DNA from: Ignavibacteriae bacterium HGW-Ignavibacteriae-4
GTDB lineage: Bacteria > Bacteroidota > Ignavibacteria > Kapaibacteriales > UBA2268
DNA: 64,000 nucleotides
Reading direction: 5' to 3'
NCBI GenBank assembly: GCA_002839765.1
Contig: PGYR01000003.1
Location: 43,388-107,387 of the forward strand
In this document: piece after piece, positions 27,143 to 46,345 of the stretch
Layout: each line of letters opens with the position of its first letter
Position numbering within the stretch: the first letter of the stretch is position 1
Notes under the pieces: model-generated
Seen by the model: the letters and a program-made list of their open reading frames with translations, nothing else
Told to the model about the DNA's origin: nothing
Databases searched by the model: none
Position numbers and translations under genes: made by a program

Positions 27143-27230
27143 GCACTAGTACATAGATTATATTCTAAAAAGACCTCGGACATTGTTCGAGGTTTTTTGT
27201 GGGGTAGTGTGAGGATTTTCTTATATTTGG
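27143..27230 (+). repeat. cassette junction module copy 1 (terminator hairpin + promoter-like box)
   Basis: ACATAGATTATATTCTAAAAAGACCTCGGACATTGTTCGAGGTTTTTTGTGGGGTAGTGTGAGGATTTTCTTATATTTGG. Hairpin at 27172-27192, T-tract at 27193-27198, TTTG at 27196-27199 and TATATTTG at 27222-27229. Confidence 0.9.
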
Positions 27231-27258
27231 ATTGATTTAACTAACTAGATGACACGAT

Positions 27259-27918
27259 ATGAGAATAATATTACTTCTTGGAATTCTAACATTATTAGGA
27301 TTTAAAGATAATTCTGTCCCTACTAACCCTTCTTTTGAAGAGCAATTTCAAATATTTAGAGATTTGGAGTTCGAACTAAATGAGGGTACTGACAAAACTG
27401 ATCTTGCAAGATGGGAAGAACAGGAGTTTTTAGATGAACCGTTTTCATTAATGTATCTGACATTTGGACAAACTCTTGAACGTGAACCTTGGACACCTTT
27501 AAGTGATAAGTGTTGGGATTTTGATACTGAAGCCATTTATGATAATGGATCTTATATAGAAATTATAAAAAATCTTGAAAGAATTACAAGAGGTGAATTA
27601 GTTTTTGAAGATGTAAAAGATTATGTAAATATAGAAGAGAAGAAAGCGTGGGTATCATTTTCATTGGGTAGTGAAAATTACAAATGGAACTTGAAGATTG
27701 ATGATGACTGGGTTGACACAGATTTATTTATAAAAATTGTGGAATTGACAGATAAAGTCAAGTCAAAAGGTAGATACACATATTTTGATGCAAAAGGCCA
27801 AAATTCAGTGATTGGATATGAGACACTAGAGAGTTTAAGAGGGATAAGATATAAAACTGGTTTGAAAATAGAATGGTTAAATAAAAACTTAGAAAAAACA
27901 ATTGAATACAGATACTAA
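27259..27918 (+). CDS. hypothetical secreted protein (cassette 1)
   Basis: 219 aa with an N-terminal signal-like segment and no motif I recognise. Its last ~15 nt (ATACAGATACTAAGC) nearly match the end of sdhB (ATACAGAGACTAAGC). Confidence 0.65.
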   Translation: MRIILLLGILTLLGFKDNSVPTNPSFEEQFQIFRDLEFELNEGTDKTDLARWEEQEFLDEPFSLMYLTFGQTLEREPWTPLSDKCWDFDTEAIYDNGSYIEIIKNLERITRGELVFEDVKDYVNIEEKKAWVSFSLGSENYKWNLKIDDDWVDTDLFIKIVELTDKVKSKGRYTYFDAKGQNSVIGYETLESLRGIRYKTGLKIEWLNKNLEKTIEYRY

Positions 27919-27990
27919 GCTCAGTAACATAGATTATATTTTTACAAAGACCTCGGGTTATGTTCGAGTTTTTTTTGTGGGGTAGAGTGA
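27919..27990 (+). repeat. cassette junction module copy 2
   Basis: AACATAGATTATATTTTTACAAAGACCTCGGGTTATGTTCGAGTTTTTTTTGTGGGGTAGAGTGA. Confidence 0.9.
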
Positions 27991-28092
27991 AACAAGTTGA
28001 ATATTAAAGTATGAATTTATCTTTGAAATAATATAGGACAGATTACTATATTAATTATTCCAATAATACTATTTATCAATATTTATAGACCT

Positions 28093-29166
28093 ATGAGCAA
28101 ATCTCTTTCAAACACAAAATTCTATTCACAAGTCGTTGATTTATTACAATCCGCAAAACAGCAAGTTGTTCGAACTGTTAACCAGACTATGGTTATTACC
28201 TATTTTGAGATAGGAAGAATGTTAGTCGAAGAAGAACAAAATGGCAATGAACGTGCTGAATATGGGAAAAAGGTTGTCAAAGAACTGTCGAAACTATTGA
28301 CTTTAAATTTTGGGAAGGGATTCTCCGTTAGGAATATTGAACAAATGAGACAATTTTATATTGTTTATTCAATACCGCAGACAGTGTCTGCGGTATTGAA
28401 AGATGGGAAATCGCAGACGGTGTCTGCGGTATTTGAAAGTATGAATTCCGAGACACTGTCTCAAAAATTCAACTTAAGTTGGTCCCATTACCTAAAACTA
28501 ATGAGAATTGATGATGAAAATGAAAGGAAGTTCTATGAAATAGAAGCACATAAGAACAACTGGAGTGTAAGAGAGTTTCAACGTCAATATGACTCAGCAT
28601 TATATACAAGATTGGTATTGAGTAGAGATAAAGATAAGGTTCTTGAATTATCGGAGAAAGGGTTAATACTCGAAAAGCCAAAAGATGCAATAAAAGACCC
28701 ATATATACTTGAATTTCTAGGTTTACCAGAGCATTCGAATTATTCAGAGAGTGAACTTGAGCAAGAGTTAATTAATAAACTTGAGAATTTTTTACTAGAA
28801 TTGGGCAACGGTTTTACATTTGTAGCAAGACAAAAACGAATCTCCTTCGAAGAAAAGCATTTTAGAATTGATTTGGTTTTCTATAATCGAATTCTAAATT
28901 GTTTCGTTCTAATAGATCTAAAAATTGGAGAACTAAAGCATCAGGATCTTGGGCAGATGCAAATGTACGTAAATTACTATGACCGAGAGATAAAGCTTGA
29001 TAACGAGAATAAAACGATTGGAATTGTTCTCTGTAAAGATAAAAGTAACTCCGTTGTTGAATATACTCTACCAGAGCACAATGAAAATATTTTTGCAAGT
29101 AAGTACCAAACCGTACTACCAAGTAAGGAAGAGTTGAAATTAATTATTAACGAACAGGAAAAGTGA
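28093..29166 (+). CDS. YhcG-like PD-(D/E)XK nuclease domain protein (DUF1016 family)
   Basis: 357 aa. N-terminus (QVV.TVN..MV..YF.IGR.L) and C-terminal core (IDLVFYNR..NCFVLIDLKIGELKHQDLGQMQMYVNYY) match the DUF1016/YhcG pattern. Confidence 0.75.
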   Translation: MSKSLSNTKFYSQVVDLLQSAKQQVVRTVNQTMVITYFEIGRMLVEEEQNGNERAEYGKKVVKELSKLLTLNFGKGFSVRNIEQMRQFYIVYSIPQTVSAVLKDGKSQTVSAVFESMNSETLSQKFNLSWSHYLKLMRIDDENERKFYEIEAHKNNWSVREFQRQYDSALYTRLVLSRDKDKVLELSEKGLILEKPKDAIKDPYILEFLGLPEHSNYSESELEQELINKLENFLLELGNGFTFVARQKRISFEEKHFRIDLVFYNRILNCFVLIDLKIGELKHQDLGQMQMYVNYYDREIKLDNENKTIGIVLCKDKSNSVVEYTLPEHNENIFASKYQTVLPSKEELKLIINEQEK

Positions 29167-29234
29167 GACTAGTAGAAACGACCTAGATTATATTTTTAAA
29201 AAGACCTCAGATTATGTTCGAGGTCTTTTTTGTA
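29167..29234 (+). repeat. cassette junction module copy 3
   Basis: GACTAGTAGAAACGACCTAGATTATATTTTTAAAAAGACCTCAGATTATGTTCGAGGTCTTTTTTGTA. Confidence 0.9.
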
Positions 29235-29351
29235 TTTAAAATAAAAAATTCTATAAATAGCCCGGATTTTGATATATTCCTATAAATGGGCAGCATAATA
29301 TAATTTTTCTGCTGTTGGATAATCAAAAATAGATAGTCTCAATTGGGAAAT

Positions 29352-29858
29352 ATGAAAGAAGAAATACAAAATTATCGGAATAATATTCAGGAATTTATTT
29401 CCACCGTGATAAATAAAAGGTTAGACAGAATTTCATTTCTTCTTGATTTAAATCCAACTTTCGAATTAGATGATGTTCCATTTCAGTTCAAATATGCTCA
29501 CTCAATTTGTTTTCATATAGAAGAAATAAATTATTTACTCAGTACATCACAAACATCTTTAGGGATTGAAACATTTTGGATTAAACAAATTCATAACCTA
29601 GATGATATAGGGAAATCAGACTTCACAGCAGAAATTAATGAACGAATTGAAAAGATTGAAGTAAAAGAAGGTATAGAGCCTTATTACTACAAAATCGAAA
29701 TTGAGACAGAAAAGAAGAAATGGTGGTTTATTGCTGGTGAAATATACGATACACACAAAGGAAAACTTGACTACAAGTTTAATGATGAAATGATCCTTGC
29801 TTTTAGCAATCTTCTGGAAGTAAATAAATATGAAGAAATAATAAATGACATAAAATAA
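29352..29858 (+). CDS. hypothetical cytoplasmic protein (cassette 3)
   Basis: About 168 aa from the ATG at 29352. No recognisable motif and no signal peptide. Confidence 0.6.
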   Translation: MKEEIQNYRNNIQEFISTVINKRLDRISFLLDLNPTFELDDVPFQFKYAHSICFHIEEINYLLSTSQTSLGIETFWIKQIHNLDDIGKSDFTAEINERIEKIEVKEGIEPYYYKIEIETEKKKWWFIAGEIYDTHKGKLDYKFNDEMILAFSNLLEVNKYEEIINDIK

Positions 29859-29870
29859 AACATACACAGG

Positions 29871-29940
29871 CTACGCTCTAACAACATAGATTATATTTTT
29901 AAAAAGACCTCGGGCATTGTTCGAGGTTTTTTTTGTGTGT
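29871..29940 (+). repeat. cassette junction module copy 4
   Basis: CTACGCTCTAACAACATAGATTATATTTTTAAAAAGACCTCGGGCATTGTTCGAGGTTTTTTTTGTGTGT. Confidence 0.9.
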
Positions 29941-30037
29941 ATTTCAACCTTTTATTATAAACGTTCGTATGTATTTAAATGCTAGCAATAATTTCTAACT
30001 AAGAAATAACTATCCTTATAAATATCAAAATACAAAT

Positions 30038-30847
30038 ATGCTTAATACTATAAAAACCAGAACTTTTTTACTGCTTGTAATATTTATTTTTACTCTCATA
30101 AGTTGTACAAATAAAAACAAGTCAAGTGAATCAAACTCAAAAACTAAAATCGAAGAGAAAGTAAAAAAGATATTATTCGTAGTGACAAGTCATAACGAAA
30201 AAGGGAACACAGGAAAAAAGACAGGATACTATCTAGGAGAAGTATCTCATCCGTGGGAAGTATTACATTCTGCTGGATATGAAATAGATTTTGTTAGTCC
30301 AAAAGGAGGTAAAGCACCTGTAGATGCTTTTGATATGGATGATTCTATAAATAAAAAGTTTTGGGATAATGACTTATATCGCAATAAGATTGAAAATACA
30401 AAAAAGCCAAATGAAGTAAATCCTGATGATTATATAGCAATTCATTTTGCAGGAGGTCACGGAGCTATGTGGGATTTTGCAGACAATAAAGAAATTGCAA
30501 AAATAGCAACTAAGATTTATGAAAATAATGGTATCGTAAGTGCTGTATGCCACGGCCCAGCAGGACTTGTAAATATTAAATTGAGCAATGGATCCTACCT
30601 AGTAGACGGTAAGAAAATAAACTCATTTACAAATGAAGAAGAAGTAAAAGTAAAACTAGAAAATGTAGTTCCATTTATGTTAGAAGATAAATTAAAGGAG
30701 CGAGGTGCTATATTTGAGAAGACTACACCATTTAATGAGTACGTGGTTGTAGATCAACGATTAGTTACAGGTCAGAATCCACAATCAGCGGGTAAAGTTG
30801 GTATTGCTACTTTAAATGAATTACAAAAATTAAAAAGAAGTCACTAA
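30038..30847 (+). CDS. DJ-1/PfpI-family (type 1 glutamine amidotransferase-like) lipoprotein
   Basis: 269 aa. Lipobox (LISCTN), nucleophile elbow AVCHGPAGL and a GGHG motif. Confidence 0.75.
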   Translation: MLNTIKTRTFLLLVIFIFTLISCTNKNKSSESNSKTKIEEKVKKILFVVTSHNEKGNTGKKTGYYLGEVSHPWEVLHSAGYEIDFVSPKGGKAPVDAFDMDDSINKKFWDNDLYRNKIENTKKPNEVNPDDYIAIHFAGGHGAMWDFADNKEIAKIATKIYENNGIVSAVCHGPAGLVNIKLSNGSYLVDGKKINSFTNEEEVKVKLENVVPFMLEDKLKERGAIFEKTTPFNEYVVVDQRLVTGQNPQSAGKVGIATLNELQKLKRSH

Positions 30848-31246
30848 ATGCCTGGTGAAACTAATTTATCAGTACTAATAAAAGGAATGACGCCAAAACT
30901 TAATGCAGGAGAATATGTCTTTTCCACAGTAAAAGATATTAGTATAATTGACCGAAAAGATACCATCTGTGAGTTTAAAGAAAAGGAAGGAACAACTATA
31001 ATAATTGGGAAAGAGATAGCAGACAGGCTAAACTTGAATTATGAATATATTGCTTCTTGGATTACACTTATGATTCACTCTTCTCTTGATGCTGTAGGTT
31101 TAACAGCAATTATTTCAAAGGAACTAGCAAAAATTGACATTAGCTGCAACGTAATTGCTGGGTATTATCATGACCATATCTTCGTTGATAAAAAAGACTC
31201 AGCCAAAGCAATTAAAATTTTGATGGAATTATCTAACAATTACTAG
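30848..31246 (+). CDS. ACT-domain-containing protein
   Basis: 132 aa. The pattern [22 protein letters not shown] fits small ACT-domain proteins. Starts directly after the DJ-1 stop (TAAATG). Confidence 0.55.
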
Positions 31247-31436
31247 AAAACTGCTGCTAAGAGACATGCTCCCTTTAGATTAGCCAAAGTATTTTTTGTA
31301 ATACAAGTTCACCTATAGGCTTTATCTTTATAGCAATGTATAATTAGGTTAATGCAACTCTTTCGCTTCCTAATTACTACAGATATATTGCCCCCTGGGG
31401 CATTTCTAGGAAAATAAAAGATTACTTTTTATGAAT

Positions 31437-31566
31437 AGCCGCGTAGTGGCTTAATATCTGTAGCTTATTGAATAATAGATATACACCTGCCCCGTAGGGG
31501 TAATATTCAACTATTTTTTGCGCCTGGACTCTTCGGACACTTCGTGTCCTCTGAGTGACGAAATTT
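31437..31566 (+). repeat. multi-hairpin repeat family B, copy 1
   Basis: 130 nt that align with 37181-37310. Shared blocks are ATATCTGTAGC, CTGCCCCGTAGG, TATTCAA and CCTGGACT.TTCGGACACTT.GTGTCCTCTGAGTGAC. Includes the perfect hairpin GGACAC-TTC-GTGTCC. Confidence 0.85.
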
Positions 31567-31570
31567 GATT

Positions 31571-31670
31571 ACTAAGACTAACCATAACGACCTAGATTTT
31601 AATTTTAAACGACCTCGGACTATGTTCGAGGTTTTTTTGTGGGGTAATGGGAGGAATTTTGTATATTTGG
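31571..31670 (+). repeat. cassette junction module copy 5
   Basis: ACTAAGACTAACCATAACGACCTAGATTTTAATTTTAAACGACCTCGGACTATGTTCGAGGTTTTTTTGTGGGGTAATGGGAGGAATTTTGTATATTTGG. Confidence 0.9.
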
Positions 31671-31825
31671 AGAGTTGTGCATCAATGTTAATATACAACT
31701 AAAACCAATCTATAAATATATTTAATTATGGCCGAAGGTTTTTGAAATAAAAATTGTCTAATCTATCGAACCTTTAAAATTATTAAAGATTAATCTATAA
31801 AATTTATAATTAAATAAATAACAAA

Positions 31826-33511
31826 ATGAAAAAGATTACAATTGTCATAATTTTATTGACAAGCATGTATAATGCTAATGCTCAATACAATAACCTTTGG
31901 ATACCGGATACCTTATCTGGGACAGTTTTCAATTTGATGTTGCAAGACACATTTGCACAATTTCGTCCTGGCAATCAAACCATAACTGCTGGAATAAATA
32001 ACAGTAATTTTTGGGGGCCAACTTTGATATTTCAAAAAGGTGAAACTGTCCACATGAACGTACAAAACAATCTAAATGATAGTACCACGCTACACTGGCA
32101 CGGATTGCATTTGCCAGCGGTAATGGATGGTGGACCACATCAAGTAATACCACCAAACGCAGTATGGCAGCCATATTGGGAGGTTAAAAACAATGCCGCA
32201 ACATTTTGGTATCACCCTCATTTACATGAAATGACTACAGAACAAATGACGGCAGGACTTGGTGGCTTTATAATAGTCAGAGATCCAGAAGAAGCGGCGC
32301 TACCTTTACCAAGAACTTATGGTGTGGATGATTTCCCTTTGGCGATTACAGATAGACGATTTCAATCGAACAATCAGTTTGATGTAACTAACTATACTGA
32401 TTCACTCATGGTGAATGGTGTATTGAGTCCTCAATTAGGTGTTCCTGCACAAGTAGTTCGATTCAGGATGTTGAATACTTCTCCACAACGAACTTACAAT
32501 TTAGGTTTCTCAGATTCACGAACTTTCTTCGTGATAGCATCTGATGGAGGTTTATTGGATAATCCGGTACCGCTCACTCGTTATCTTCTATCTCCCGGTG
32601 AACGGGTGGAAGTGTTGGTTGATTTTGGTGGCCAGCAGAATCAAACGGTTGATCTAAAAGCATACAATAGTTCACTTGCTTCTGATATTTCCGGTGCTCC
32701 TGTCACCCATCCACCAACTGATGCGTTAAACGGGAAAAACTTTAATGTTTTGCGTTTTAATATTCTAGCTCCAATAACGGATGGCATAACTTCCATACCC
32801 TCAAACTTAATAAAAAATGTATTAATAGATCCCAATTCTTCTAATATAACTCGTACAATAACATTTGTAGATGGATTTTTAAATGGCTTTCCAAATACCT
32901 CCTTCGATGGAGTTCAATTTAAATTGAACTTTATTAATAAAACAGTTCCTTATAACAATACTGAGATTTGGAAACTAGTGAATAATTCAAATCTCGCTCA
33001 TTCATTTCATATACATGATGTACAGTTCAATGTTATCAGCCGTTCAGGCAGTACGACAACTTTGCAGGCGTACGACAAAGGATGGAAAGACAACATTTTG
33101 GTTCGAGCTGGTGAAACACTCAGCTTCATTGCAAAATTTGAAGATTATTCTGATGCAACTCATCCATTTATGTACCATTGCCACATGTCTGTACATGAAG
33201 ATGAAGGTATGATGGGGCAGTTTGTAGTAGCAAACACCTCCGATGTAAATTCTATTGAAATTACTGATTATCAGTTTAGCATTTATCCGAATCCATCGAA
33301 AGAAAAAATATTTGTAAAATTCAGTGACCCAAATCAATCTGCATATTATATCAGAATTACTGATGCTTTAGGTAGAACTATGCTAATGCTCCCACAGCCA
33401 GAATTGAACAATGGAATTGATATCAGTACATTTACGAAAGGAATATATACAATCCAATTAACAGACAACAACACTAAACAAACTTTAAGCAAAACATTTA
33501 TAAAGGAATAA
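31826..33511 (+). CDS. multicopper oxidase with T9SS C-terminal sorting domain, copy 1
   Basis: 561 aa with a signal peptide. Copper-site motifs HWHGLH, WYHPHLH, HIHD and YHCHMSVHEDEGMMGQF. CTD is FSIYPNPSKEKIFVKF...GIYTIQL. Confidence 0.9.
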   Translation: MKKITIVIILLTSMYNANAQYNNLWIPDTLSGTVFNLMLQDTFAQFRPGNQTITAGINNSNFWGPTLIFQKGETVHMNVQNNLNDSTTLHWHGLHLPAVMDGGPHQVIPPNAVWQPYWEVKNNAATFWYHPHLHEMTTEQMTAGLGGFIIVRDPEEAALPLPRTYGVDDFPLAITDRRFQSNNQFDVTNYTDSLMVNGVLSPQLGVPAQVVRFRMLNTSPQRTYNLGFSDSRTFFVIASDGGLLDNPVPLTRYLLSPGERVEVLVDFGGQQNQTVDLKAYNSSLASDISGAPVTHPPTDALNGKNFNVLRFNILAPITDGITSIPSNLIKNVLIDPNSSNITRTITFVDGFLNGFPNTSFDGVQFKLNFINKTVPYNNTEIWKLVNNSNLAHSFHIHDVQFNVISRSGSTTTLQAYDKGWKDNILVRAGETLSFIAKFEDYSDATHPFMYHCHMSVHEDEGMMGQFVVANTSDVNSIEITDYQFSIYPNPSKEKIFVKFSDPNQSAYYIRITDALGRTMLMLPQPELNNGIDISTFTKGIYTIQLTDNNTKQTLSKTFIKE

Positions 33512-33520
33512 ATAAACAGA

Positions 33521-35218
33521 ATGAAAAACATCTACATACTTATTATTTTACTATCAAGCATTTTTAGTTTAAATGCACAATACAATAACCTCTGGATACC
33601 GGACACACTTTCAGGTACTACTTTTGATTTGGCAATAAAAGACACCTTTGCTCAAATAGTAAGTACGGGAAACCAAACCATTACTGGTGGCATCAATGGA
33701 AAGTTTTGGGGCCCTACTTTGTTTATGAACAAAGGGGATGTAGTACAAATGAACGTTACTAATAATTTAAACGATACTACAACATTGCATTGGCATGGAA
33801 TGCACCTACCGGCAGTGATGGATGGCGGACCACACCAGATAATACCACCGGGTACCGTATGGAGACCTTATTGGAAAGTATCAAATGATGCAGCCACCTA
33901 TTGGTATCATCCGCATTTGCATGAAATGACGGAAGAGCAAATGATAAAAGGAATAGGTGGTTTGATTATCATAAGAGATTCCGTTGAAAGTGCCTTACCA
34001 TTACCGAGAAAATATGGAATAGATGATATACCATTAGTGTTAACAGATAGAGATTTCAATTCAGCAAATCAGATGCCCATTCTACCTTATGGTGATAGTG
34101 CCATGGTAAATATGACATTGAGGCCACAATATACGATTCCATCTCAAGTAGTAAGGTTTAGGTTTTTAAATGGTGCCGTAGAGCGTAGTTTCAATTTAGG
34201 ATTTAGCGACAACCGGACATTTTATGTTATTACCAGTGATGGTGGTTTATTGTCGGCACCTGTGCCATTAACAAGATATACTATTCATGCTGGTGAACGA
34301 ATTGAAATTCTAGTTGACTGCAATGGACAAAGTGGTACAAGTGTAGATTTAAAAGCATATAATTCCACTCTGTCACAGACTACTCCCGGTGGTGATATAT
34401 TACCACCTAATACCATTTTTGTCAATGCGTTGGCAAGGAAAGATTTCAATCTTCTACATCTGAATATAGGTGAACAAACGACAAGTCCAATCACTGACAT
34501 TCCAAATGCTTTAAGAACAGTAACTCCAATACCAGCCGGTAATGCAAACATAACACGTAACTTAACCATTGCAGATGGACCGAATCAAGGCGCATCCGGC
34601 GTATTATTTTTGTTAAATAATAAAGTATTTGACATTAATCAACTTGATTATACTGTTCCATTAGGTAATACAGAAATATGGCAGATCACCAACTCGGGTA
34701 ATTTTGGACATCCATTCCATATACATGATGTGCAGTTCAATATTCTTTCTATAAATGGCTCTGCTCCTGACGCTACACATGCGGGTTGGAAAGATGTAGT
34801 TTATGTCCCGTCTAATACTGTGGTAAAATTCATTGCAAAGTTTGAAGATTATGCCGATTCACTTCATCCTTTTATGTTTCATTGTCATATTTCACTCCAT
34901 GAGGATGACGGAATGATGGGACAATTTGTAGTAGTAGGTAATACATCAGGAATAGGTAATATTGAAAAACCTGTACCGCAATTTTCCGTGTATCCAAATC
35001 CTGCGACTGAGGGCGTTTACATAAAAATGAATGAGGAAAATGCAGAGATATATTACATTAAAATCATGGACGAATTAGGAAGAACTATTCTGATGTTACC
35101 ACGACCTGATATTTCAAAAGGAATTGATGTAAGTAACTTTGCAAGTGGCGTCTATCATTTGATACTAACGGATGAAATAAATAAAAAAACTAATTCCAAA
35201 ACCTTTATAATAAAATAG
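33521..35218 (+). CDS. multicopper oxidase with T9SS C-terminal sorting domain, copy 2
   Basis: 565 aa tandem paralog of the previous gene with the same copper motifs (HWHGMH, FHCHISLHEDDGMMGQF) and a CTD. Confidence 0.9.
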   Translation: MKNIYILIILLSSIFSLNAQYNNLWIPDTLSGTTFDLAIKDTFAQIVSTGNQTITGGINGKFWGPTLFMNKGDVVQMNVTNNLNDTTTLHWHGMHLPAVMDGGPHQIIPPGTVWRPYWKVSNDAATYWYHPHLHEMTEEQMIKGIGGLIIIRDSVESALPLPRKYGIDDIPLVLTDRDFNSANQMPILPYGDSAMVNMTLRPQYTIPSQVVRFRFLNGAVERSFNLGFSDNRTFYVITSDGGLLSAPVPLTRYTIHAGERIEILVDCNGQSGTSVDLKAYNSTLSQTTPGGDILPPNTIFVNALARKDFNLLHLNIGEQTTSPITDIPNALRTVTPIPAGNANITRNLTIADGPNQGASGVLFLLNNKVFDINQLDYTVPLGNTEIWQITNSGNFGHPFHIHDVQFNILSINGSAPDATHAGWKDVVYVPSNTVVKFIAKFEDYADSLHPFMFHCHISLHEDDGMMGQFVVVGNTSGIGNIEKPVPQFSVYPNPATEGVYIKMNEENAEIYYIKIMDELGRTILMLPRPDISKGIDVSNFASGVYHLILTDEINKKTNSKTFIIK

Positions 35219-35224
35219 AACACT

Positions 35225-35842: not shown

Positions 35843-35866
35843 TTATAATTAAATTTCAGTTTTGGT

Positions 35867-35926: not shown

Positions 35927-35994
35927 GAAGTTAGGTGTAGCTAAACGAACGAACTGGATTCCTAATACTTTAATTTAATTTATTAGATTTACAA

Positions 35995-37162: not shown

Positions 37163-37180
37163 AAGCTAAAACCTAATAAT

Positions 37181-37310: not shown

Positions 37311-37330
37311 TCCTCCCTCCAATCCCCCAG

Positions 37331-38447: not shown

Positions 38448-38476
38448 TTTGTTGAATAAATAAAAGAAAAGAAAAT

Positions 38477-38986: not shown

Positions 38987-38987
38987 T

Positions 38988-39899
38988 ATGAAACACTTCA
39001 AGACTTTATCAGAATATTTCGAGTACATGGAACTACCAAGGCCTGAGCATCCTATGCTAAGTGTAATGTCAGCGTACGGTGATAGTTTTCTTACATGCCC
39101 TAAAGAAAGTTCACCTCCTATTTCAAATGATTGCTATTCCATAAGTCTCAAAAAGATTATCAAAGGTAATCTGAATTATGGAAGAACAAAATATGATTTT
39201 ACAAATGGAGCATTGATTTTTTTGGCTCCCAGACAAGTTGTGCAATGGGACAGTAGTGTAATTTTTGAACAAAAAGGTTTTTCAATTAACTTTCATGAAG
39301 ATTTTCTCAAAGGGACTGAGTTAACTCGACAAATCAACAAATATGGTTTTTTCTCTTACACAGCAAATGAGGCCTTACATCTATCACCCAAAGAAGAGAA
39401 ACTATTAGAATCAATTGTTCAGAATATAGAAATAGAATACCATAACAACCAAGATGAATTTAGTAAAGATATTATTATTTCTCAGCTAAGCACCCTTTTA
39501 AAATATGCTAACCGATTTTACGAAAGACAATTTATTAACCGTAAAGAGCTATCAAATGATTTACTAGAGCAATTCAATAAGCAACTTGAAATCTATTTTG
39601 AATCAGGTCAATTAGAACAAAATGGAATTCCTAGTATAGAACAATTGGCTAACAAAATGTCTGTTTCTCAGCGATATCTAAGTGACACATTAAAGTTAGA
39701 AACTGGTAAGACCACAACAGAACACCTGCAACTATATTTGATTGATATCGCGAAAGATATATTGCTAAAGCCAAATAAAAGTATATCTGAAGTTGCTTAT
39801 GAATTAGGTTTCGATTACCCTCAATATTTTTCAAGATTATTCAAAAAGAAAGAAGGTCTAAGTCCTTCAGAATACAGAGAACAGTATAAAATGAATTGA
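38988..39899 (+). CDS. AraC-family transcriptional regulator
   Basis: C-terminal double HTH (SIEQLANKMSVSQRYLSDTLK...EVAYELGFDYPQYFSRLFKKKEGLSPSEYR). The ATG at 38988 is preferred because it begins just after the previous stop. Confidence 0.85.
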   Translation: MKHFKTLSEYFEYMELPRPEHPMLSVMSAYGDSFLTCPKESSPPISNDCYSISLKKIIKGNLNYGRTKYDFTNGALIFLAPRQVVQWDSSVIFEQKGFSINFHEDFLKGTELTRQINKYGFFSYTANEALHLSPKEEKLLESIVQNIEIEYHNNQDEFSKDIIISQLSTLLKYANRFYERQFINRKELSNDLLEQFNKQLEIYFESGQLEQNGIPSIEQLANKMSVSQRYLSDTLKLETGKTTTEHLQLYLIDIAKDILLKPNKSISEVAYELGFDYPQYFSRLFKKKEGLSPSEYREQYKMN

Positions 39900-39926
39900 T
39901 TATACAAATCAGAATAAGCTAGGAAG

Positions 39927-39990
39927 ACATTATTGAATTAAATCTATTTTGTGAAGACCTCGGACTATATTCGAGGTTTTTTGTGTGTGT
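39927..39990 (+). repeat. cassette junction module copy 9
   Basis: ACATTATTGAATTAAATCTATTTTGTGAAGACCTCGGACTATATTCGAGGTTTTTTGTGTGTGT. A TATTTTTG box follows at 40015-40022. Confidence 0.85.
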
Positions 39991-40121
39991 TTAGTATTTT
40001 TAAATGAATTGTCGTATTTTTGGATTATAATAAGTAATGACTAGATATATGATAATTCGTATAGTTAGAAAGTTAGCTGCAACCCTAACTAACCTCAAAT
40101 CACCATAGACTAACTTTGACA

Positions 40122-42644
40122 ATGCCTGCAAATAATTTCGACATATTAGGTTTGACAAACGAGCAGGTAATTCTTGCAAGGGAAAGATTTGGACAAAATA
40201 AATTAGACTATAAAAAAGAAAACAACTTCTTAGACACCCTAAAACGCATTGGCAAAGAACCAATGACAATATTATTATTGGTAGCAGCTTCCATCTATTT
40301 TATCAGCGGCGAAACTGGGGATGGAGCATTTCTTGTTGTTGCTATCATATTCATCACCTCAATTTCATTATATCAGGATTCTAGAAGCAGAAATGCTTTA
40401 GAAAGACTGAAGGACTTTTCACAGCCCTATTGTAAAGTTATCCGCAATGGAAACATACAAGAAATAAAAAGCAAAGATTTGGTATATGGTGACAGTCTGA
40501 TTGTAGAAGAGGGAACATTAATTACAGCAGACGGCATAATTGTTCATTCAAATGATTTCTCAGTAAACGAATCGATACTCACTGGTGAATCATTTGCTGT
40601 TTTTAAAGATAAGAGCAAAGAAGATAATTATATCTATAGTGGCACTACTGTCGCCAGTGGTTTAGCTATTGCCACAATAACAGATATTGGTAACGAAACT
40701 AAATTAGGTAGAATTGGAACTAGTTTAGAAAGTATCAGTGAAGAAAAAACACCATTAGAAATTCAAATTGCAAATTTCGTAAAGAAGATGGCAATAGCAG
40801 GAGTTGTAGTTTTTGTAATTGTTTGGGCAATCAATTATTGGCATTCTCAGAATTTATTGAATAGCTTGTTACAGTCGCTTACATTGGCCATGAGTATTTT
40901 ACCTGAAGAAATTCCAGTTGCTTTTACAACTTTTATGGCTTTGGGTGCATGGCGTTTAATGAAAATGGGTATTGTGGTAAAACAAATGAAAACTGTTGAA
41001 ACATTAGGTAGTGCCACTGTTATTTGTACCGATAAGACAGGAACAATTACAGAAAATAAAATGAGTTTGGTAAAACTTTTTTTGCTATCTTCAAATAAAA
41101 TATCTCATACCAACGACCAATTAACAGAGGATGAAAAAGAACTTATAGAATTGGGAATGTGGGCAAGCGAACCTATTCCGTTTGACCCAATGGAAGTAGC
41201 ACTTCATCAAACCTATAAAGAAATGGTACATTCTGATGAACGACCCAATTACAAACTTATACATGAATACCCATTAGGTGGCAAACCACCAATGATGACA
41301 CATATATTTGAGGACGATAAAGGCAACCGAATTATAGCAGCAAAAGGTGCACCCGAAAAATTGATGAATGTTTCAAACCTAACAGAAACCGAAAAACAAC
41401 AAATAAATGAGGCTATTCAGCTTTTAGCAATTGATGGTTATAGAGTGCTGGGAGTAGGTGAATCAAACTTTACAAGTGACAATTACCCTGTAAAACAACA
41501 AGATTTGCCATTTAAATTTAAAGGCATTATTGCCTTTTATGACCCACCAAAAAAGAACATTAAAAAAGTATTAGAAGATTTTTATAACGCTGGTATCGAT
41601 ATAAAAATTATAACAGGTGATAATGCGGCTACTACCACAGCCATTGCAAAACAAATTGGATTTAGGGGTTATGAAAATAGTATTACAGGTGATCAGCTGA
41701 TGAAATTAGATGAGGCTGCTTTACAAACATGTGTTGCGAATACTGCTATTTTTACCCGTATGTTTCCCGAAGCTAAATTAAAAATCATTAATGCATTAAA
41801 ATCCAACAATCAAATTGTAGCAATGACGGGCGATGGCGTGAATGACGGACCAGCCTTAAAAGCTGCACACATTGGCATTGCTATGGGTAAAAAAGGGACG
41901 GAAATAGCTAAACAAGCTGCCTCATTGATTTTATTAGAAGATGATCTATCTAAAATGGTTGATGCAATAGCAATGGGAAGAAAAATATATACTAACCTAA
42001 AAAAAGCAATACAATACATTATATCTATACACATCCCAATAATCCTAACTGTATTTATTCCTTTAGCTTTAGGATGGATTTACCCCAACATTTTTTCTCC
42101 AATCCATATTATCTTTTTAGAACTAATAATGGGACCAACTTGTTCTATTATTTACGAAAATGAACCAATAGAAAAGAATACAATGTTACGGAAACCGAAG
42201 GCATTGACAACTACATTTTTTGATTGGAAAGAACTATCCATAAGTATAGTACAAGGTTTAATGATAACGGTTGGGACTTTATTCGTTTACCAATATTCAG
42301 TTATTAATGGTTACGACGAGGCACTCGTAAGGACAATGACTTTTACAGTTTTGATAGCAGCAAATATTTTCCTAACTTTAGTAAACCGCTCATTTTATTA
42401 TTCTATATTAACTACTTTGAAGTATAAGAACAATATGGTTTTATTTATAATTTTTATAACAATCGCAATTGTAGGACTAATCATTTATGTAAGCCCATTG
42501 ACAACTTTTTTTAATTTTGAGACCTTGAATTTAGCTCAATTATTAATATGTATTTCCATTGGTTTTATTACAGTAATTTGGTTTGAAATTACAAAACTAA
42601 TTAAAAGGGTAAAAACCAATACAGGGCTAAAGGTAAACAGCTAA
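40122..42644 (+). CDS. cation-transporting P-type ATPase (type II, Ca2+/Mg2+-like)
   Basis: About 840 aa. Motifs TGES, phosphorylation site CTDKTGTITENKM, and hinge MTGDGVNDGPALK. Has an N-terminal cation-ATPase-N pattern. No CPC or heavy-metal-binding motif, so not a Cu/Zn P1B pump. Confidence 0.9.
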   Translation: MPANNFDILGLTNEQVILARERFGQNKLDYKKENNFLDTLKRIGKEPMTILLLVAASIYFISGETGDGAFLVVAIIFITSISLYQDSRSRNALERLKDFSQPYCKVIRNGNIQEIKSKDLVYGDSLIVEEGTLITADGIIVHSNDFSVNESILTGESFAVFKDKSKEDNYIYSGTTVASGLAIATITDIGNETKLGRIGTSLESISEEKTPLEIQIANFVKKMAIAGVVVFVIVWAINYWHSQNLLNSLLQSLTLAMSILPEEIPVAFTTFMALGAWRLMKMGIVVKQMKTVETLGSATVICTDKTGTITENKMSLVKLFLLSSNKISHTNDQLTEDEKELIELGMWASEPIPFDPMEVALHQTYKEMVHSDERPNYKLIHEYPLGGKPPMMTHIFEDDKGNRIIAAKGAPEKLMNVSNLTETEKQQINEAIQLLAIDGYRVLGVGESNFTSDNYPVKQQDLPFKFKGIIAFYDPPKKNIKKVLEDFYNAGIDIKIITGDNAATTTAIAKQIGFRGYENSITGDQLMKLDEAALQTCVANTAIFTRMFPEAKLKIINALKSNNQIVAMTGDGVNDGPALKAAHIGIAMGKKGTEIAKQAASLILLEDDLSKMVDAIAMGRKIYTNLKKAIQYIISIHIPIILTVFIPLALGWIYPNIFSPIHIIFLELIMGPTCSIIYENEPIEKNTMLRKPKALTTTFFDWKELSISIVQGLMITVGTLFVYQYSVINGYDEALVRTMTFTVLIAANIFLTLVNRSFYYSILTTLKYKNNMVLFIIFITIAIVGLIIYVSPLTTFFNFETLNLAQLLICISIGFITVIWFEITKLIKRVKTNTGLKVNS

Positions 42645-42782
42645 CTCCTAAAACTCTCTCTATGGATATGTTGCTCAGATCCTCCTTTATCGAAATTTAA
42701 AATACGAGTCGAAATTTATTTCAACATCGATGGTTGCTGTTACAAGTCAAAGTACTTCGCTCAGGTATCATAATTTGAGACC

Positions 42783-42943
42783 CTACAAACTCACCCTCGG
42801 CAGCGATAGCTTATACTTTATCGAGATGATTCGGATAGCTAAAATAAAAAGTGTTGGAATAACTTGGAGTAGCCATGGAGGTGCGTAGAGATACCACTGT
42901 ACCACAATTTGAATCCAACAGCTATGACAGCAGAAGCATATAT
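42783..42943 (-). pseudogene. 3' fragment of a TRIC/UPF0126-family gene (frameshifted, 5'-truncated)
   Basis: Aligns by eye with the 3' end of the intact gene at 46369-46530. Compare AAACTCACCCTCGGCAGCGATAGCTTATACTTTATCGAGATGATTCGGATAGC with AAACTCACCCTCGGAAGTGATAGCTTATACTTAATCGATATTATTCGAATAGC. One frame gives PTLFILAIRIISIKYKLSLPRVSL* against the intact PTVFIFAIRIISIKYKLSLPRVSL*. The upstream part lies in another frame. Confidence 0.85.
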
Positions 42944-42947
42944 TTTA

Positions 42948-42989
42948 TTCAAATATACTGAAGCAAGAGCAACTGCATACACAGACTAA
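42948..42989 (+). pseudogene. duplicated 3' end (~40 nt) of sdhB
   Basis: AATATACTGAAGCAAGAGCAACTGCATACACAGACTAAGC compared with the sdhB end AATATGCAAAAGCAAGAGCAACTGCATACAGAGACTAAGC (27103-27144). It is followed by a junction module, as at sdhB. Confidence 0.85.
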
Positions 42990-43080
42990 GCTCTAACAAC
43001 ATAGATTATATTTTTAAAAAAACCTCGGATATTGTTCGAGGTTTTTTTGTGGGTTTAGAGTGAGGATTTTCTTATATTTG
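42990..43080 (+). repeat. cassette junction module copy 10
   Basis: CTCTAACAACATAGATTATATTTTTAAAAAAACCTCGGATATTGTTCGAGGTTTTTTTGTGGGTTTAGAGTGAGGATTTTCTTATATTTG. This is the copy most similar to copy 1. Confidence 0.9.
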
Positions 43081-43122
43081 AGTGGTTATAAAAACATTTG
43101 ACAAAAAAATAAACAAACAACA

Positions 43123-43668
43123 ATGAGAAATAAACTAATTTTTTTAATATTCCCCTTTTTAGGTTTTTTGATTAGCTGTGGTAGTGGACAACTTAAAACA
43201 ACCGAAATGAATAATGATGAAGCCATCATAATCGCTCGTGCATTTATAAAAAATAATGGAGAAAATATAAATACGAAGTGGAATTTTCTCTGGAATGAAA
43301 GACTATGGGGGAATAATGCTGTTTGGGTTGAAAAAGACGGATATGTATTTATGAAATTACCAAAAGGAAAACATTTTATCTCCCTACTTCAATACAATGA
43401 ATATCAAAAAAATATTCCTGACAATTATTTAACTGTAGATTTAGAACCCAACAAAATATATTATATTGGAGATTTGACTTTTAACTGGAATATCAATAAG
43501 AATGATGTTGCAAGAACTGGTATTGTCGGAGCCGTTTTGGACGCAGAAAAAAATGATAATAAAATTCAAGTTGACCTAACTGACAATTATGAAAACATGG
43601 TCAAGGTATTCAACGAAAAATATGGGAATTCAAAACCGGTGGAAAAGCAATTAATCCGAATTGAATAA
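43123..43668 (+). CDS. hypothetical lipoprotein
   Basis: 181 aa with a lipobox (FLISCGS) and no recognisable domain. Confidence 0.6.
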   Translation: MRNKLIFLIFPFLGFLISCGSGQLKTTEMNNDEAIIIARAFIKNNGENINTKWNFLWNERLWGNNAVWVEKDGYVFMKLPKGKHFISLLQYNEYQKNIPDNYLTVDLEPNKIYYIGDLTFNWNINKNDVARTGIVGAVLDAEKNDNKIQVDLTDNYENMVKVFNEKYGNSKPVEKQLIRIE

Positions 43669-43685
43669 ATAAAAGATCGTTTAAA

Positions 43686-43768
43686 GTGAATATCTCTTAA
43701 AAAGACCTCGGACAATGTTCGAGGTTTTTTTGTGGGGAACAAATAGGAATTAGTTTTCGTATAAGTCG
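43686..43768 (+). repeat. cassette junction module copy 11
   Basis: GTGAATATCTCTTAAAAAGACCTCGGACAATGTTCGAGGTTTTTTTGTGGGGAACAAATAGGAATTAGTTTTCGTATAAG. Confidence 0.9.
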
Positions 43769-43813
43769 ATAGTGAAGTCCATTTTAGTAAACTAAAACAA
43801 ATATAGAACCTAC

Positions 43814-44434
43814 ATGAAAAAGAAAATCATTATTATCAGTATTAGTATTGCATTGATGGCAATTGTCTATTTGGCTATTAATTGGAAATCATTGTTGCTA
43901 AATATGGCAGGTTTTCAACAACCTAAAATTGAAAATACTGAAACTATTAAATCTTGGGATGGTTTAAAAACAAAGCAAGATATGCTTTTAGTCGCATCCA
44001 CAAAAGCAAATTTCAATTACCTTCAAGAAAATATCGGAGTACCAGGGATAATGGTGTTTAACAAAGAAGGTTATCTAATTATAAGTAATAGAGGTGAAGG
44101 GTGTCAAATCACTGCAAGGGATAAACTAAAAGATCTGGGGAAAAAAGAATTTTCTAAGTCTAACAGTAAGGATATTGGATTTTCAAATATTAATGACTTT
44201 TTAGACCGGGTTTCAAATATTAATAAAGCTGAATTGAAGAATGAAATTGGTTATGATTATACTGTGGTATATACATGGGCAAAATATTTACCAGAAAAAT
44301 CAATTGAAATGATGGAAGCAGTTAACTCTGGATTAAAAAGAAATAAAGCAAAAGTATTACTACTTTCTCTAAATCTTGATTATATTGATAAATGGACTAG
44401 TGGTCAAGTAGGTGATAAAATAGATTTAGACTGA
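43814..44434 (+). CDS. hypothetical membrane-anchored protein
   Basis: 206 aa with an N-terminal TM anchor and no recognisable motif. Confidence 0.6.
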   Translation: MKKKIIIISISIALMAIVYLAINWKSLLLNMAGFQQPKIENTETIKSWDGLKTKQDMLLVASTKANFNYLQENIGVPGIMVFNKEGYLIISNRGEGCQITARDKLKDLGKKEFSKSNSKDIGFSNINDFLDRVSNINKAELKNEIGYDYTVVYTWAKYLPEKSIEMMEAVNSGLKRNKAKVLLLSLNLDYIDKWTSGQVGDKIDLD

Positions 44435-44461
44435 TGTAAGCTAGAGCCACTGCATAAAGTA

Positions 44462-44540
44462 AACTTTATTTTTTAAAAGACCTCGGACAATGTTCGAGGT
44501 TTTTTTGTGGGGGATTTGAAAGGAATTTTGTTACTTTGTT
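44462..44540 (+). repeat. cassette junction module copy 12
   Basis: AACTTTATTTTTTAAAAGACCTCGGACAATGTTCGAGGTTTTTTTGTGGGGGATTTGAAAGGAATTTTGTTACTTTGTTG. Confidence 0.9.
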
Positions 44541-44581
44541 GGTTTAACAGTTATTTAATTACATCAAAAGAACCAAACAAT

Positions 44582-44986
44582 ATGGCACAAAAAGAAATTA
44601 ACTTAAGTACTGAAGTTTCTAACTTATTAGATGAAATAAACCACCCATTTAGAAATGAGATTGAAATTTTGCGACTTTGTATATTGAATGCAAATAACGA
44701 TTTGAAAGAGAATATAAAATGGAATGGTCCAAACTATTGTTTTGACAATGAAGACAGAATCACAATGAGAGTTCAACCACCTACTAAACAAGTGCAATTG
44801 ATTTTTCATATAGGAGCTAAAAAGCAGGAACAACCGAAGAATAAACTAATTGAAAATAAAAGCAAACTGTTAGTTTGGAAAGAAAATGACAGAGCCATTA
44901 TAACTTTTAAAAGTTTGAATGATATCGAAGGTGCAATAGAAGAATTGTCAATAATTGTAAATGAATGGATAAGTAACACGAAGTAA
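44582..44986 (+). CDS. DUF1801-like (YdhG-like) small protein
   Basis: About 134 aa from MAQKEINL. The pattern HP....I..LR..I......L.E.IKWN.PNY resembles DUF1801. The longer track ORF would start inside the repeat. Confidence 0.55.
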   Translation: MAQKEINLSTEVSNLLDEINHPFRNEIEILRLCILNANNDLKENIKWNGPNYCFDNEDRITMRVQPPTKQVQLIFHIGAKKQEQPKNKLIENKSKLLVWKENDRAIITFKSLNDIEGAIEELSIIVNEWISNTK

Positions 44987-45153
44987 GGGGTAAATTTGTT
45001 CATATAATTGATGTTGAAGGTAAAAAAGTTGAACTATGGGAAGAGATATATTAAAGCGAAAGTACAACCTAATTTTTTTTTGCACTTCAATAAAATTTTC
45101 TTGTCTATTTTTGTCATAAATATTATTTTTGTCAACAATAATATCTGAAAATT

Positions 45154-45660
45154 ATGCCAACATTAATTAACCCTAATTCTTTGATTTATCAAACGGATAA
45201 TACGGCTCTTGATGAATTCAAATTGAAAACATTAGTACCTAGATTGGGAAAGTATTGCAATTCCAACCAAATGATTTTCGATATAAGACTACTCGAACCA
45301 GGTAAATATTCATTCCCTTATCACTTTCATAGAAATGCTGAAGAACTAATTATGATCATCTCAGGTTCACTTACTTTGAGAACTGAAGATGGATTGAAAA
45401 TAATTAAATCTGGGGAGTTAGTCTTCTTCGAGATAGGACCATCAGGAGCTCATCAGTTCTATAATCATGAGCAAACTTCTTGTATATATCTAGATATAAA
45501 GACCACTCAAGGGATTGATGTTGTTGAGTACCCCGATTCTGGGAAAGTAAATATAACGCCATTAAACATGATATATGAGATTGGGTCTCAAGTTAATTAT
45601 AATCAAGGAGAATCAAATATTAGTTCTATATGGGAAAATTTAAAAAAAGAACACAGCTAG
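45154..45660 (+). CDS. cupin-domain protein
   Basis: 168 aa. Cupin motifs (PYHFHRNAEELIMIISG ... GPSGAHQFYN). Confidence 0.7.
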   Translation: MPTLINPNSLIYQTDNTALDEFKLKTLVPRLGKYCNSNQMIFDIRLLEPGKYSFPYHFHRNAEELIMIISGSLTLRTEDGLKIIKSGELVFFEIGPSGAHQFYNHEQTSCIYLDIKTTQGIDVVEYPDSGKVNITPLNMIYEIGSQVNYNQGESNISSIWENLKKEHS

Positions 45661-45748
45661 AATAAGCTACGAAAAATGGTTAAACTCAATTTGTTTTTCT
45701 GAACATAATTTAAATAATATGTAATACTTATTTGGAAATAGATCCGAA

Positions 45749-46309
45749 ATGAAAAATATAGTTTTTGCTTTACTTTTTATATCTACTTTTTTAAACGTTT
45801 TAGCACAAAAGAATCCGGAAGATAGTAATTTTGAAGTGGAGATAGATCCTATCGCTTTTGCATTGCAAGGATATTCATTTCATGGTATATATCTTAATTC
45901 CAGAATTAGGACTGACCTTGGTGTTTTTGGGATTATGCAGCCTGTTGGTTTTAATGGTAATGAAGGTTTCCAAATAAAAACTCAAGGAGTAGGCGTCAAA
46001 GTAAATTACTTGCTAACTGAAAATGAAACTTGGTTTACGGGGATTGGATTGGGATATTCTACTAATCGAATAAACTTGCTTGAAAGTAGTGAGGTACAAA
46101 ACCAGAAAATTATCGGTATTGGTGCTCACCTAGGTTATCGTTGGTTTATGTTCGAAAATGCTTCAAATGCTTTACGTAACCTATATTTAGCACCATGGTT
46201 TAGCATTGACTATAATATACCAATTAATGACGTATCATTCGAGACAAAGAATTATAATCAACAAATTATTTCATTTTTTCCAACGATTCATATAGGTTAT
46301 AAAATTTAG
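45749..46309 (+). CDS. small outer-membrane beta-barrel protein (hypothetical)
   Basis: 186 aa. Signal peptide, alternating hydrophobic beta-strand pattern and a C-terminal aromatic region (IHIGYKI). Confidence 0.55.
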   Translation: MKNIVFALLFISTFLNVLAQKNPEDSNFEVEIDPIAFALQGYSFHGIYLNSRIRTDLGVFGIMQPVGFNGNEGFQIKTQGVGVKVNYLLTENETWFTGIGLGYSTNRINLLESSEVQNQKIIGIGAHLGYRWFMFENASNALRNLYLAPWFSIDYNIPINDVSFETKNYNQQIISFFPTIHIGYKI

Positions 46310-46345
46310 TTGAACTTATAGAGTTCAACATAGACTATTATTAGC
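46309..46345 (+). repeat. hairpin plus partial junction-module left arm
   Basis: GTTGAAC-TTATAGA-GTTCAAC followed by ATAGACTATTATT. Together CAACATAGACTATTATT resembles the module left arm CAACATAGATTATATTT. Confidence 0.5.

Follow-up and report, generated by a model that had tools for sequence, protein, structure and literature searches.

How did 19 functionally unrelated genes come to lie, in a single orientation and separated by copies of one repeat, between sdhB and a convergent gene of the TRIC family? The question is raised by a 64-kb stretch of contig PGYR01000003.1 of Ignavibacteriae bacterium HGW-Ignavibacteriae-4, referred to here as the window. An initial annotation had read the sdhB-TRIC interval as an integron-like cassette array without a visible integrase. 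The array is indeed real: beside a housekeeping operon, heterogeneous cassettes follow one another in a single orientation with a repeat between them, and comparison with relatives firmly points to a hypervariable cassette island specific to one lineage, a genus-level clade of Kapaibacterium-like Bacteroidota. The delimiting repeat can, by alignment, be assigned with equal firmness to an att-like (attachment site-like) duplicate of the insertion target that is predicted to double as a terminator-promoter adaptor. Our best reading is an att-like tandem-accretion island of expression-ready cassettes, integron-like in function, and we give a probability of roughly 0.5 to a model in which a site-specific recombinase, its gene lying elsewhere, inserts circular units at the module in the manner of tandem accretion. 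Literature searches gave no description of this locus, nor of anything comparable in Kapaibacteria.

The cassette array beside sdhB

The interval between the two anchor genes (27143-46368) measures 19.2 kb. The list of open reading frames (ORFs) contains 19 plausible genes in it (27259-46309), on the plus strand throughout, and a repeat search together with nhmmer recovered 11 hairpin copies of one module, every one on the plus strand, over a span of 27161-44513. Two partial copies without hairpin are also present (37336-37366 and 46328-46344), so that the counts of the initial annotation stand. The hairpin copies are spaced by 683-4279 nt. As had been stated, the module is confined to the array, with nothing comparable in the remaining 45 kb of the window; its 33-nt consensus, at up to three mismatches, gave 6 matches vs 0 in 100 shuffles, and the spacer word CATAGAYTAT occurs six times, in the array only and on the plus strand only. 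The first three cassettes were found in identical order in an independent Logan assembly of another run, which argues that the array is not an assembly artefact. Exact-protein look-ups of the window cassettes matched only the same strain in another run and gave no alternative contexts. The window has no tRNA or tmRNA gene that could be an integration site.

The cargo is heterogeneous, as listed before and as seen with Pfam (Table 1), and the members with a recognisable family are metabolic, stress, resistance or secreted-enzyme genes. The GC content of the array is slightly lower (30-34% vs 34-39%). Two paralogous genes for multicopper oxidases of the type IX secretion system (T9SS; 561 and 565 aa, families D12 and D19) stand in tandem at 31826-35218 with no module between them; this pair is a duplication within one cassette.

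The delimiting module and its relation to sdhB

The full-length module comprises ~133 nt (27096/27101-27232, from the intergenic reading and the alignment of copies). It starts with the last ~45 nt of sdhB and the stop codon, followed by ~10 variable nt, the spacer ACATAGATTATATTTT, the hairpin and GTGGGG...GAGGATTTTCTTATATTTGG. The hairpin core, AAAAGACCTCGGnnnTGTTCGAGGTTTTTTTGTGGGG, is found in 11 copies. The hairpins fold as canonical intrinsic terminators with A-tract, 8-bp stem, triloop and U-tract (folding free energy, dG, -19 to -27 kcal/mol; z -3.7 to -4.4). Hardly any change affects the stem ACCTCGG/TTCGAGG in the alignment of 39 copies from 10 genomes, in contrast to the decaying flanks; the copies have a perfect hairpin of A-tract, ACCTCGGAC, triloop, GTTCGAGGT and T-tract, with no R-box consensus and no bulged bases. 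Loop and closing pair vary (C-G, U-G, U-A).

The T-tract of the terminator ends in TTTG, a -33 box, and TAnnTTTG follows 22 nt on; the whole motif, TTTG-N22-TAnnTTTG, is exact in three copies, with near matches in others. TTTG (-33) and TAnnTTTG (-7), ~19-22 nt apart, are the sigma-A promoter arrangement of Bacteroidota. The module is therefore predicted to contain both an intrinsic terminator and a Bacteroidota sigma-A promoter. Outside the array, a gene for a TonB-dependent receptor (48858-51221) is preceded by a thiamine pyrophosphate (TPP) riboswitch (RF00059, 70.5 bits) at 48671-48773, and a TTTG-N-TAnnTTTG box in the region 48639-48773 stops exactly one base before this riboswitch. From the position of the same box directly before a riboswitch, this type of promoter is evidently used in this genome. 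The predicted architecture that emerges from the comparison of copies is one in which the terminator closes the upstream unit and the promoter opens the next; with both in each module, every cassette would be insulated and self-expressed.

Folding and the motif scan agree with the view that the repeat is not attC-like and bears a putative terminator and a TAnnTTTG promoter. The terminator-promoter nature held, but not the notion of an independent element: by alignment the module is a duplicated 3' coding end of sdhB plus the sdhCAB terminator and a downstream promoter (both predicted), i.e. an att-like target duplication. The amino acids of the sdhB tail align with the C termini of SdhB from outgroups; hence, the tail is native, and sdhB is the source of the copies and not the other way round. 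The orphan 219-aa ORF (27259-27918) owes its C terminus and stop codon to a decayed full-length remnant of sdhB (27877-27924); it ends in ..GAATACAGATACTAA, the end of sdhB being ..GCATACAGAGACTAA.

Since both boundaries of the 133-nt module are defined and its ends, TTCGAATAT...ATATTTGGA, form a weak 7-of-9 inverted repeat (read off the sequence), one might think of a small mobile element, similar to a miniature inverted-repeat transposable element, that inserted between pre-existing genes. This is very improbable, because the module's left part is coding sequence that is native to sdhB and that outgroups have conserved, the copies occupy one locus in one orientation, and the part that varies between genomes is the genes between the copies. 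In addition, no target-site duplications were seen.

Content of the interval among relatives

Related or look-alike loci pulled from public collections are labelled L001-L032. One genome per species (GTDB) was scanned with an exact pattern, to which 8 of the 11 window copies conform. This pattern is present in six related metagenome-assembled genomes (MAGs), solely on contigs with sdhB or TRIC and as 1-3 exact matches that are clustered; a metagenome scan added two further arrays. The initial annotation had allowed for a simpler explanation, according to which the genes are ordinary residents and the hairpin is just the intrinsic terminator that the species commonly has where its operons end. 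The canonical fold would suit such a terminator, and three lone look-alike hairpins were found in unrelated bacteria (L009-L011: Flavobacterium, Zunongwangia and Vibrio), all without the module flanks. However, the 64 kb contain 0 copies beyond the array, the copies have flanking sdhB remnants and the spacer in common, each relative has a different gene content and, in the six genomes matched, the pattern is restricted to the sdhB/TRIC locus. This last result refutes a species-wide terminator.

Viral contigs, plasmids and phages gave no module match, and an origin of the module from any of these was discarded on that ground. In Rfam, the TPP riboswitch was the only match at the gathering threshold; permissive matches in the array were sub-threshold noise, and a known RNA family as identity of the module was dropped for lack of an above-threshold match there.

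The sdhB-TRIC interval was compared in 11 related genomes, and its content is different in all of them, against the possibility, raised at the outset, of an interval identical in all relatives. These eleven genomes have SdhB proteins 90-98% identical (aa), sdhB and TRIC as anchors and eleven different contents of 3.7 to >19 kb, several of the other intervals being >10 kb. TRIC is the downstream neighbour of the array also in L002, L006, L022, L023, L026 and L031. The shortest interval, 3.7 kb in L023, encodes a GajB/UvrD-like helicase and a 183-aa ORF and has a single module.

The closest relative is a Candidatus Kapaibacterium MAG (L004/L031), whose SdhB is 98% identical (aa; 94% nt). Its interval (L031) has only 4.8 kb and encodes 656 aa and 192 aa, then DUF1801, cupin and 186 aa. 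What it shares with the window is the 1.9 kb from 44467 to TRIC (96% identical); the sdhB-proximal 17.3 kb of the window are replaced by 2.7 kb of other genes. The ~660-aa proteins of the first cassettes of L001 and L004 are mutually unrelated. Single units, on the other hand, recur at different places. The 171-aa family (F2) comes first in L016 and L020, second in L012 and third among the units of the window; the set of SDR (short-chain dehydrogenase/reductase), 169-aa and AraC genes is found in the window, L006 and L026; DUF6920 with a 241-aa partner occurs in L016 and L006, and DUF6920 without that partner in L002; TPR with a C11 peptidase occurs in L025, L022 and L007. Homology breakpoints were mapped at five places (27930, 29165-29200, 39992 and either side of 44467), none of them more than ~10 nt away from a hairpin. 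As judged by this comparison, units are gained, lost and re-ordered between relatives, and turnover appears greatest at the sdhB-proximal end.

In L026, whose SdhB is 90% identical, seven genes fill an interval of 4.9 kb (2301-7182), among them SDR, AraC and a 171-aa gene, in an order unlike that of the window. Outgroup Kapabacteria (SdhB 73-74% identical) have no array; another convergent gene follows right after sdhB, with an unrelated terminator. A truly empty sdhB-TRIC site was not found among the clade members compared.

Cargo of the relatives includes catalase-peroxidase, T9SS C11 and C13 peptidases, glyoxalase, ParE, an Arr rifampin ADP-ribosyltransferase, domains of unknown function (DUFs) and many orphans; the C13 peptidase genes are on the minus strand. 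The Arr-type gene (L007, 74-511; PF12120, E 4.5e-44) is an antibiotic-resistance gene carried as a cassette in an environmental Bacteroidota MAG.

Table 1 Anchors, module copies, TRIC-derived parts and cargo of the sdhB-TRIC interval (positions in the window; terminators and promoters are predicted)
Feature	Position	Strand	Remarks
sdhB (succinate dehydrogenase Fe-S subunit)	26390-27142	+	fixed upstream anchor; Pfam Fer2_3/Fer4
Primary full-length module	27096-27232	+	same layout 3' of sdhB in nine module-bearing relatives, not L026
Primary module, sdhB-side boundary	27096-27111	+	AATTT/TTCGAATATGC
Primary module, last ~14 sdhB codons and stop codon	stop codon 27140-27142	+	followed by variable 10 nt
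Primary module, spacer and terminator hairpin	hairpin 27167-27199	+	spacer ACATAGATTATATT precedes hairpin
Primary module, promoter	27196-27229	+	TTTG-N22-TATATTTG
Module copy 1, hairpin core	27161-27206	+	
Module copy 2, hairpin core	27938-27984	+	repeat family D14
Module copy 3	29192-29237	+	upstream of 171-aa cassette, family F2
Module copy 4	29895-29941	+	short sdhB remnant CATACACAGGCTACGC
TRIC-proximal non-coding element, internal copy (junction J1)	31436-31567	+	then sdhB remnant and module copy 5
Module copy 5	31601-31647	+	hairpin and full promoter
Module copy 6	35879-35921	+	3' arm of hairpin fused straight to promoter -7 box
Module copy 7	36698-36743	+	most diverged copy, AACTTCGG...
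TRIC-proximal element, second internal copy, with hairpin-less partial module (junction J2)	37181-37312; partial module 37336-37366	+	upstream of SDR/169-aa/AraC cassette
Module copy 8	39946-39990	+	right edge of SDR-AraC cassette; L006 homology stops at 39992
TRIC 3'-end pseudogene fragment	42781-42947	-	~55 codons, one frameshift; repeat family D13
Full-length internal module (hairpin copy 9)	42948-43080	+	88% identical to 27101-27148; starts at TTCAAATATAC, abuts TRIC fragment (junction J3); family D14
Module at 42948, hairpin core	43010-43056	+	
Module at 42948, promoter	43046-43080	+	
Module copy 10	43694-43739	+	
Module copy 11	44468-44513	+	synteny breakpoint vs closest relative
Array terminus	46328-46360	+	spacer-motif remnant ACATAGACTATTATTAG and tail of TRIC-proximal element CCTCTGGGTGTCAC; 8 nt before TRIC stop
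TRIC-family gene (PF03458 Gly_transporter)	46369-46974	-	fixed downstream anchor, convergent
Cargo	27259-46309	+	19 genes in ~12 units
Cargo units 1-4			219 aa; YhcG nuclease; 171 aa; DJ-1+ACT
Cargo units 5-8			2 T9SS multicopper oxidases + AhpC/TSA; 222 aa; avidin-like 123 aa; SDR+169 aa+AraC
Cargo units 9-12			P-type ATPase; 181 aa; 206 aa; DUF1801+cupin+186 aa

The window has other repeats as well. A tandem duplication of ~2.06 kb (19795-23578) comprises two genes for SNF-family transporters, ~71-75% identical (nt), each followed by a 41-aa ORF; the transporter gene is single-copy in some relatives (L023, L025, L032). Three tandem paralogues of 192, 212 and 224 aa (families D1, D7 and D9) lie at 51365-53218 with a period of ~605-630 nt, and the one copy that was scanned (51365-51943) had no Pfam match. 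Tandem repeats of ~42 nt at 63428-63640 fall within a minus-strand ORF (63424-63966) and suggest that its product is repetitive and of low complexity.

Origin of the array and likeness to known systems

How the array has grown can be approached from its boundaries. Five full-length internal copies have unrelated sequence upstream (two each in L002 and L008, and the window copy at 42948). These five, plus the J1-type junctions, all begin within the 8 nt of 27096-27103, at TTCGAATATGC, and upstream of this boundary similarity to sdhB is no better than that of shuffles. The boundary itself is an imperfect inverted repeat, TGAAT-TTCGAAT-ATGCA (read off the sequence). Its TTCGAA palindrome might suggest restriction and ligation (BstBI-type), with fragments circularised at this site; this was rejected, TTCGAA being unremarkable in the window (31 sites vs 22 expected) and nothing else supporting it. 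Remnants of the sdhB 3' end lie upstream of most hairpins, and other copies are shorter, eroded or without remnant. Internal remnants of different genomes have TAAGCTC after the stop codon in common, whereas the primary copies have TAAGCAC or TAATCGG. From the absence of this signature in the primary copies it follows that the internal modules are a family travelling with the cassettes and are not recopied from the genome's own sdhB.

The clustered sdhB-side boundary, the invariant stem, the breakpoints at hairpins, the co-orientation and the turnover at the proximal end support a site-specific model. In such a model incoming DNA, as circular or segmental molecules with a module of their own, would recombine with a resident module, and each entry would duplicate the module and shift older units toward TRIC. 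The reaction would be catalysed by a recombinase from elsewhere in the genome, which is the least certain step, and its site could be at or near TGAAT-TTCGAAT-ATGCA in the sdhB tail and/or in the invariant hairpin. Later, units may have been shuffled between modules by the same enzyme or by RecA.

The other end of the interval tells a different story. A non-coding element of ~130 nt (AGCCGCGTAGTGGCTTAATATCTGTAGC ... CTGCCCCGTAGGGG ... GGACACTTCGTGTCCTCTGAGTGAC) with three small hairpins has its native place beside the TRIC stop codon, as in L022 and L023; it was located at 31436-31567 and 37181-37312 in the window, at 3226-3413 in L007, 6332-6391 in L022 and 14425-14457 in L023. It has no Rfam match. 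A structured RNA was considered and dropped (three copies, no compensatory changes, z -0.4 to -1.7), as was a decayed piece of sdhB or TRIC (not significant vs shuffles). Both internal elements of the window are followed by an sdhB remnant or a partial module. Together with the TRIC pseudogene fragment, which underlies the 52-aa ORF 42730-42888 and makes that ORF spurious, this gives at least three internal junctions of TRIC side to sdhB side (31436-31570, 37181-37366 and 42781-42948). The array can then be read as four segments from sdhB tail to TRIC flank (27143-31567, 31570-37312, 37313-42947 and 42948-46368), and the internal TRIC-side copies indicate that it was built at least partly from whole sdhB-to-TRIC segments.

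This leads to the assumption that no dedicated enzyme is needed, to which we give appreciable weight short of calling it probable. The array would have arisen by illegitimate, microhomology-mediated tandem duplication, or else by Campbell-type insertion of whole intervals, from the sdhB 3' end to the TRIC 3' end, that came from other strains; at a later stage, unequal recombination by RecA and allelic replacement between modules of 35-135 nt would add, delete and shuffle units, and modules would be retained only for their usefulness as terminator and promoter. The three TRIC-side junctions, one of them with a coding fragment and with a TTTC(T)GAA microhomology that links the two parents (J3), look like interval duplication or Campbell insertion and not like precise excision. 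The J1-type junction is common to the window, L007 and L008, as expected of a founder junction spread by descent. Identity at third codon positions in the last ~120 nt of sdhB (27020-27142) is 0.89-0.92 vs 0.58-0.80 mid-gene (nine relatives), as expected for a recombination anchor; the first 135 nt of sdhB are likewise high, and the conservation of the tail is therefore only suggestive. The stem contains G-U wobble pairs, as would suit an RNA terminator under selection.

Several further observations weigh against site-specific tandem accretion, some of them also speaking for the enzyme-free origin. No recombinase, integrase, transposase or relaxase was found in the ~60 cargo ORFs of 11 arrays (Pfam, NCBIfam, PADLOC and PDB sequence search), and these searches gave nothing relevant either to a hidden recombinase among cargo and orphans; in the window, Pfam analysis of the 19 cargo genes and 20 flanking ORFs gave no Phage_integrase, other recombinase or transposase domain, in line with the initial annotation. 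The homologous flanks vary in length and many remnants are eroded, with no gradient of decay along the array. In L026 the interval is variable and filled with genes although the repeated module is missing and another terminator follows sdhB, i.e. it is a hotspot even without modules. The boundary palindrome is short and could be chance. Covariation in the hairpin is not significant (39 copies, 10 genomes), and its sequence-specific recognition is thus no more than putative; terminator and promoter activity are predictions from sequence.

On the other side, the sdhB-side breakpoints of at least five copies with unrelated partners fall within 8 nt, whereas random joins should scatter. Copies that are 63-93% identical over short lengths are a poor substrate for RecA, strict co-orientation and a stem conserved far above its flanks are left unexplained, and there is no obvious source for circularised incoming DNA in the enzyme-free scheme. 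We therefore retain site-specific tandem accretion as the best reading. Since a recombinase-free origin has appreciable probability, "integron-like" refers to the architecture and not to a shown mechanism.

The resemblance to integrons, or to clusters of attC sites lacking integrases (CALINs), holds for the architecture but not for membership of the family. In integrons, attC is an imperfect inverted repeat of 57-141 nt with R''-L''/L'-R' boxes (RYYYAAC ... GTTRRRY) and extrahelical bases, and cassettes are typically promoterless. Shared with the sdhB array are co-oriented, small and unrelated cassettes with one structured repeat each, content that differs between close relatives, turnover apparently greatest at the proximal end and adaptive cargo (resistance, stress, toxin ParE, orphans). 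A true integron array without integrase nearby, in which the hairpins are attC sites, would explain this layout. It is nevertheless a very unlikely explanation: the repeat has neither the R''/R' boxes nor extrahelical bases nor a bipartite stem, but a perfect 8-bp stem with triloop and A/T tracts; it carries a predicted promoter; and it includes a fragment of the neighbouring sdhB, which also takes the 5' position in the absence of attC features and attI, and of intI in the window. Integrons have one Pc promoter, whereas here a promoter and a terminator are predicted per cassette, and the repeat duplicates the 3' end of a housekeeping gene with junctions that hold far-flank TRIC sequence. Modules of integrative mobile elements exploiting Xer recombination (IMEX; dif modules, pdif) were excluded, as a scan for the 28-nt dif-like XerC/XerD site, with the dif consensus at up to 6 mismatches, gave no match in or near any module.

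In the minimal mobile elements of Neisseria, or "additive" flexible genomic islands, variable genes lie between two conserved genes and are exchanged among relatives, possibly by homologous recombination only. Those loci are without internal repeated modules or tandem growth, whereas here the flank itself is multiplied inside the island.

Tycheposon islands are one precedent for the site-specific model: partial copies of the target genes (tRNAs) are scattered in them, and newer elements push older ones inward (10.1101/2020.12.28.424599). Those of Prochlorococcus share with the sdhB array the conserved-gene anchor, the scattered partial target copies, the presumed inward push and the lack of an integrase in most units (10.1101/2020.12.28.424599). 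They differ in that the target is a tRNA and not the tail of a protein gene with its terminator; the units here are smaller (0.7-4.3 kb), the repeat contains a predicted promoter and none of the 11 arrays has an integrase-bearing member. Another precedent is given by integrase-less cis-mobilizable elements (CIMEs), which form by accretion at gene 3' ends (PMC5704250). At fda, CIMEs and ICESt1/ICESt3 resemble the present case, being (the CIMEs) integrase-less, with the end of a protein gene contained in their att repeats and with tandem accumulation; they are few, large and decayed integrative and conjugative or integrative and mobilizable elements (ICE/IME) with a known integrase family (PMC5704250). 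Here, up to 11 or more tiny units without mobility genes are separated by a 133-nt repeat of predicted regulatory function. As in accretion islands, the units are flanked by direct repeats with the 3' end of the target gene, the five full-length copies starting at 27096-27103; no cognate integrase was found in the 11 arrays or the 64-kb window.

The recombinase-associated orphan-immunity arrays of Bacteroidales (rAID-1), to which the initial annotation had also likened the array, are defined by an XerD-like recombinase of the tyrosine type at the 5' end, with no less than 44% identity to BF9343_RS08045, and by at least two downstream genes, co-oriented and low in GC, that code for orphan immunity proteins (10.1101/471110). 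Phylum, small co-oriented genes, repetitive intergenic motifs, slightly lower GC and an integron-like look are common to both. That the sdhB array belongs to this type is hardly credible: its 5' gene is sdhB, no XerD-like recombinase stands at the 5' end in the window or in the 11 arrays, the recognisable cargo is metabolic, stress, resistance or secreted-enzyme genes and not immunity genes, and the repeat comes from sdhB.

It is tempting, if only tentatively, to go one step further and see in the locus an unrecognised gene-capture platform of Bacteroidota, an analogue of integrons whose site would consist of terminator, promoter and the tail of a housekeeping gene and whose recombinase would be remote or of an unrecognised type. 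If a dedicated enzyme moves the cassettes, the task that integrons perform would have been solved a second time by independent evolution, in a phylum with few classical integrons. The design would be a different one, too: each captured gene would bring or receive its own terminator and promoter, and its expression would be independent of the distance from one promoter. Even if enzyme-free, the locus would be an unusually clear natural case of a housekeeping terminator region multiplied into landing pads, by which one intergenic spacer is turned into a flexible island of 4-19 kb. The 133-nt module would be a compact, portable terminator-promoter part (as predicted) for the engineering of Bacteroidota. 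For the poorly known environmental Kapaibacteria themselves, the cargo, with rifampin ADP-ribosyltransferase, P-type ATPase, multicopper oxidases, catalase-peroxidase, T9SS proteases, YhcG nuclease and GajB-like helicase, fits a store of genes for niche adaptation.

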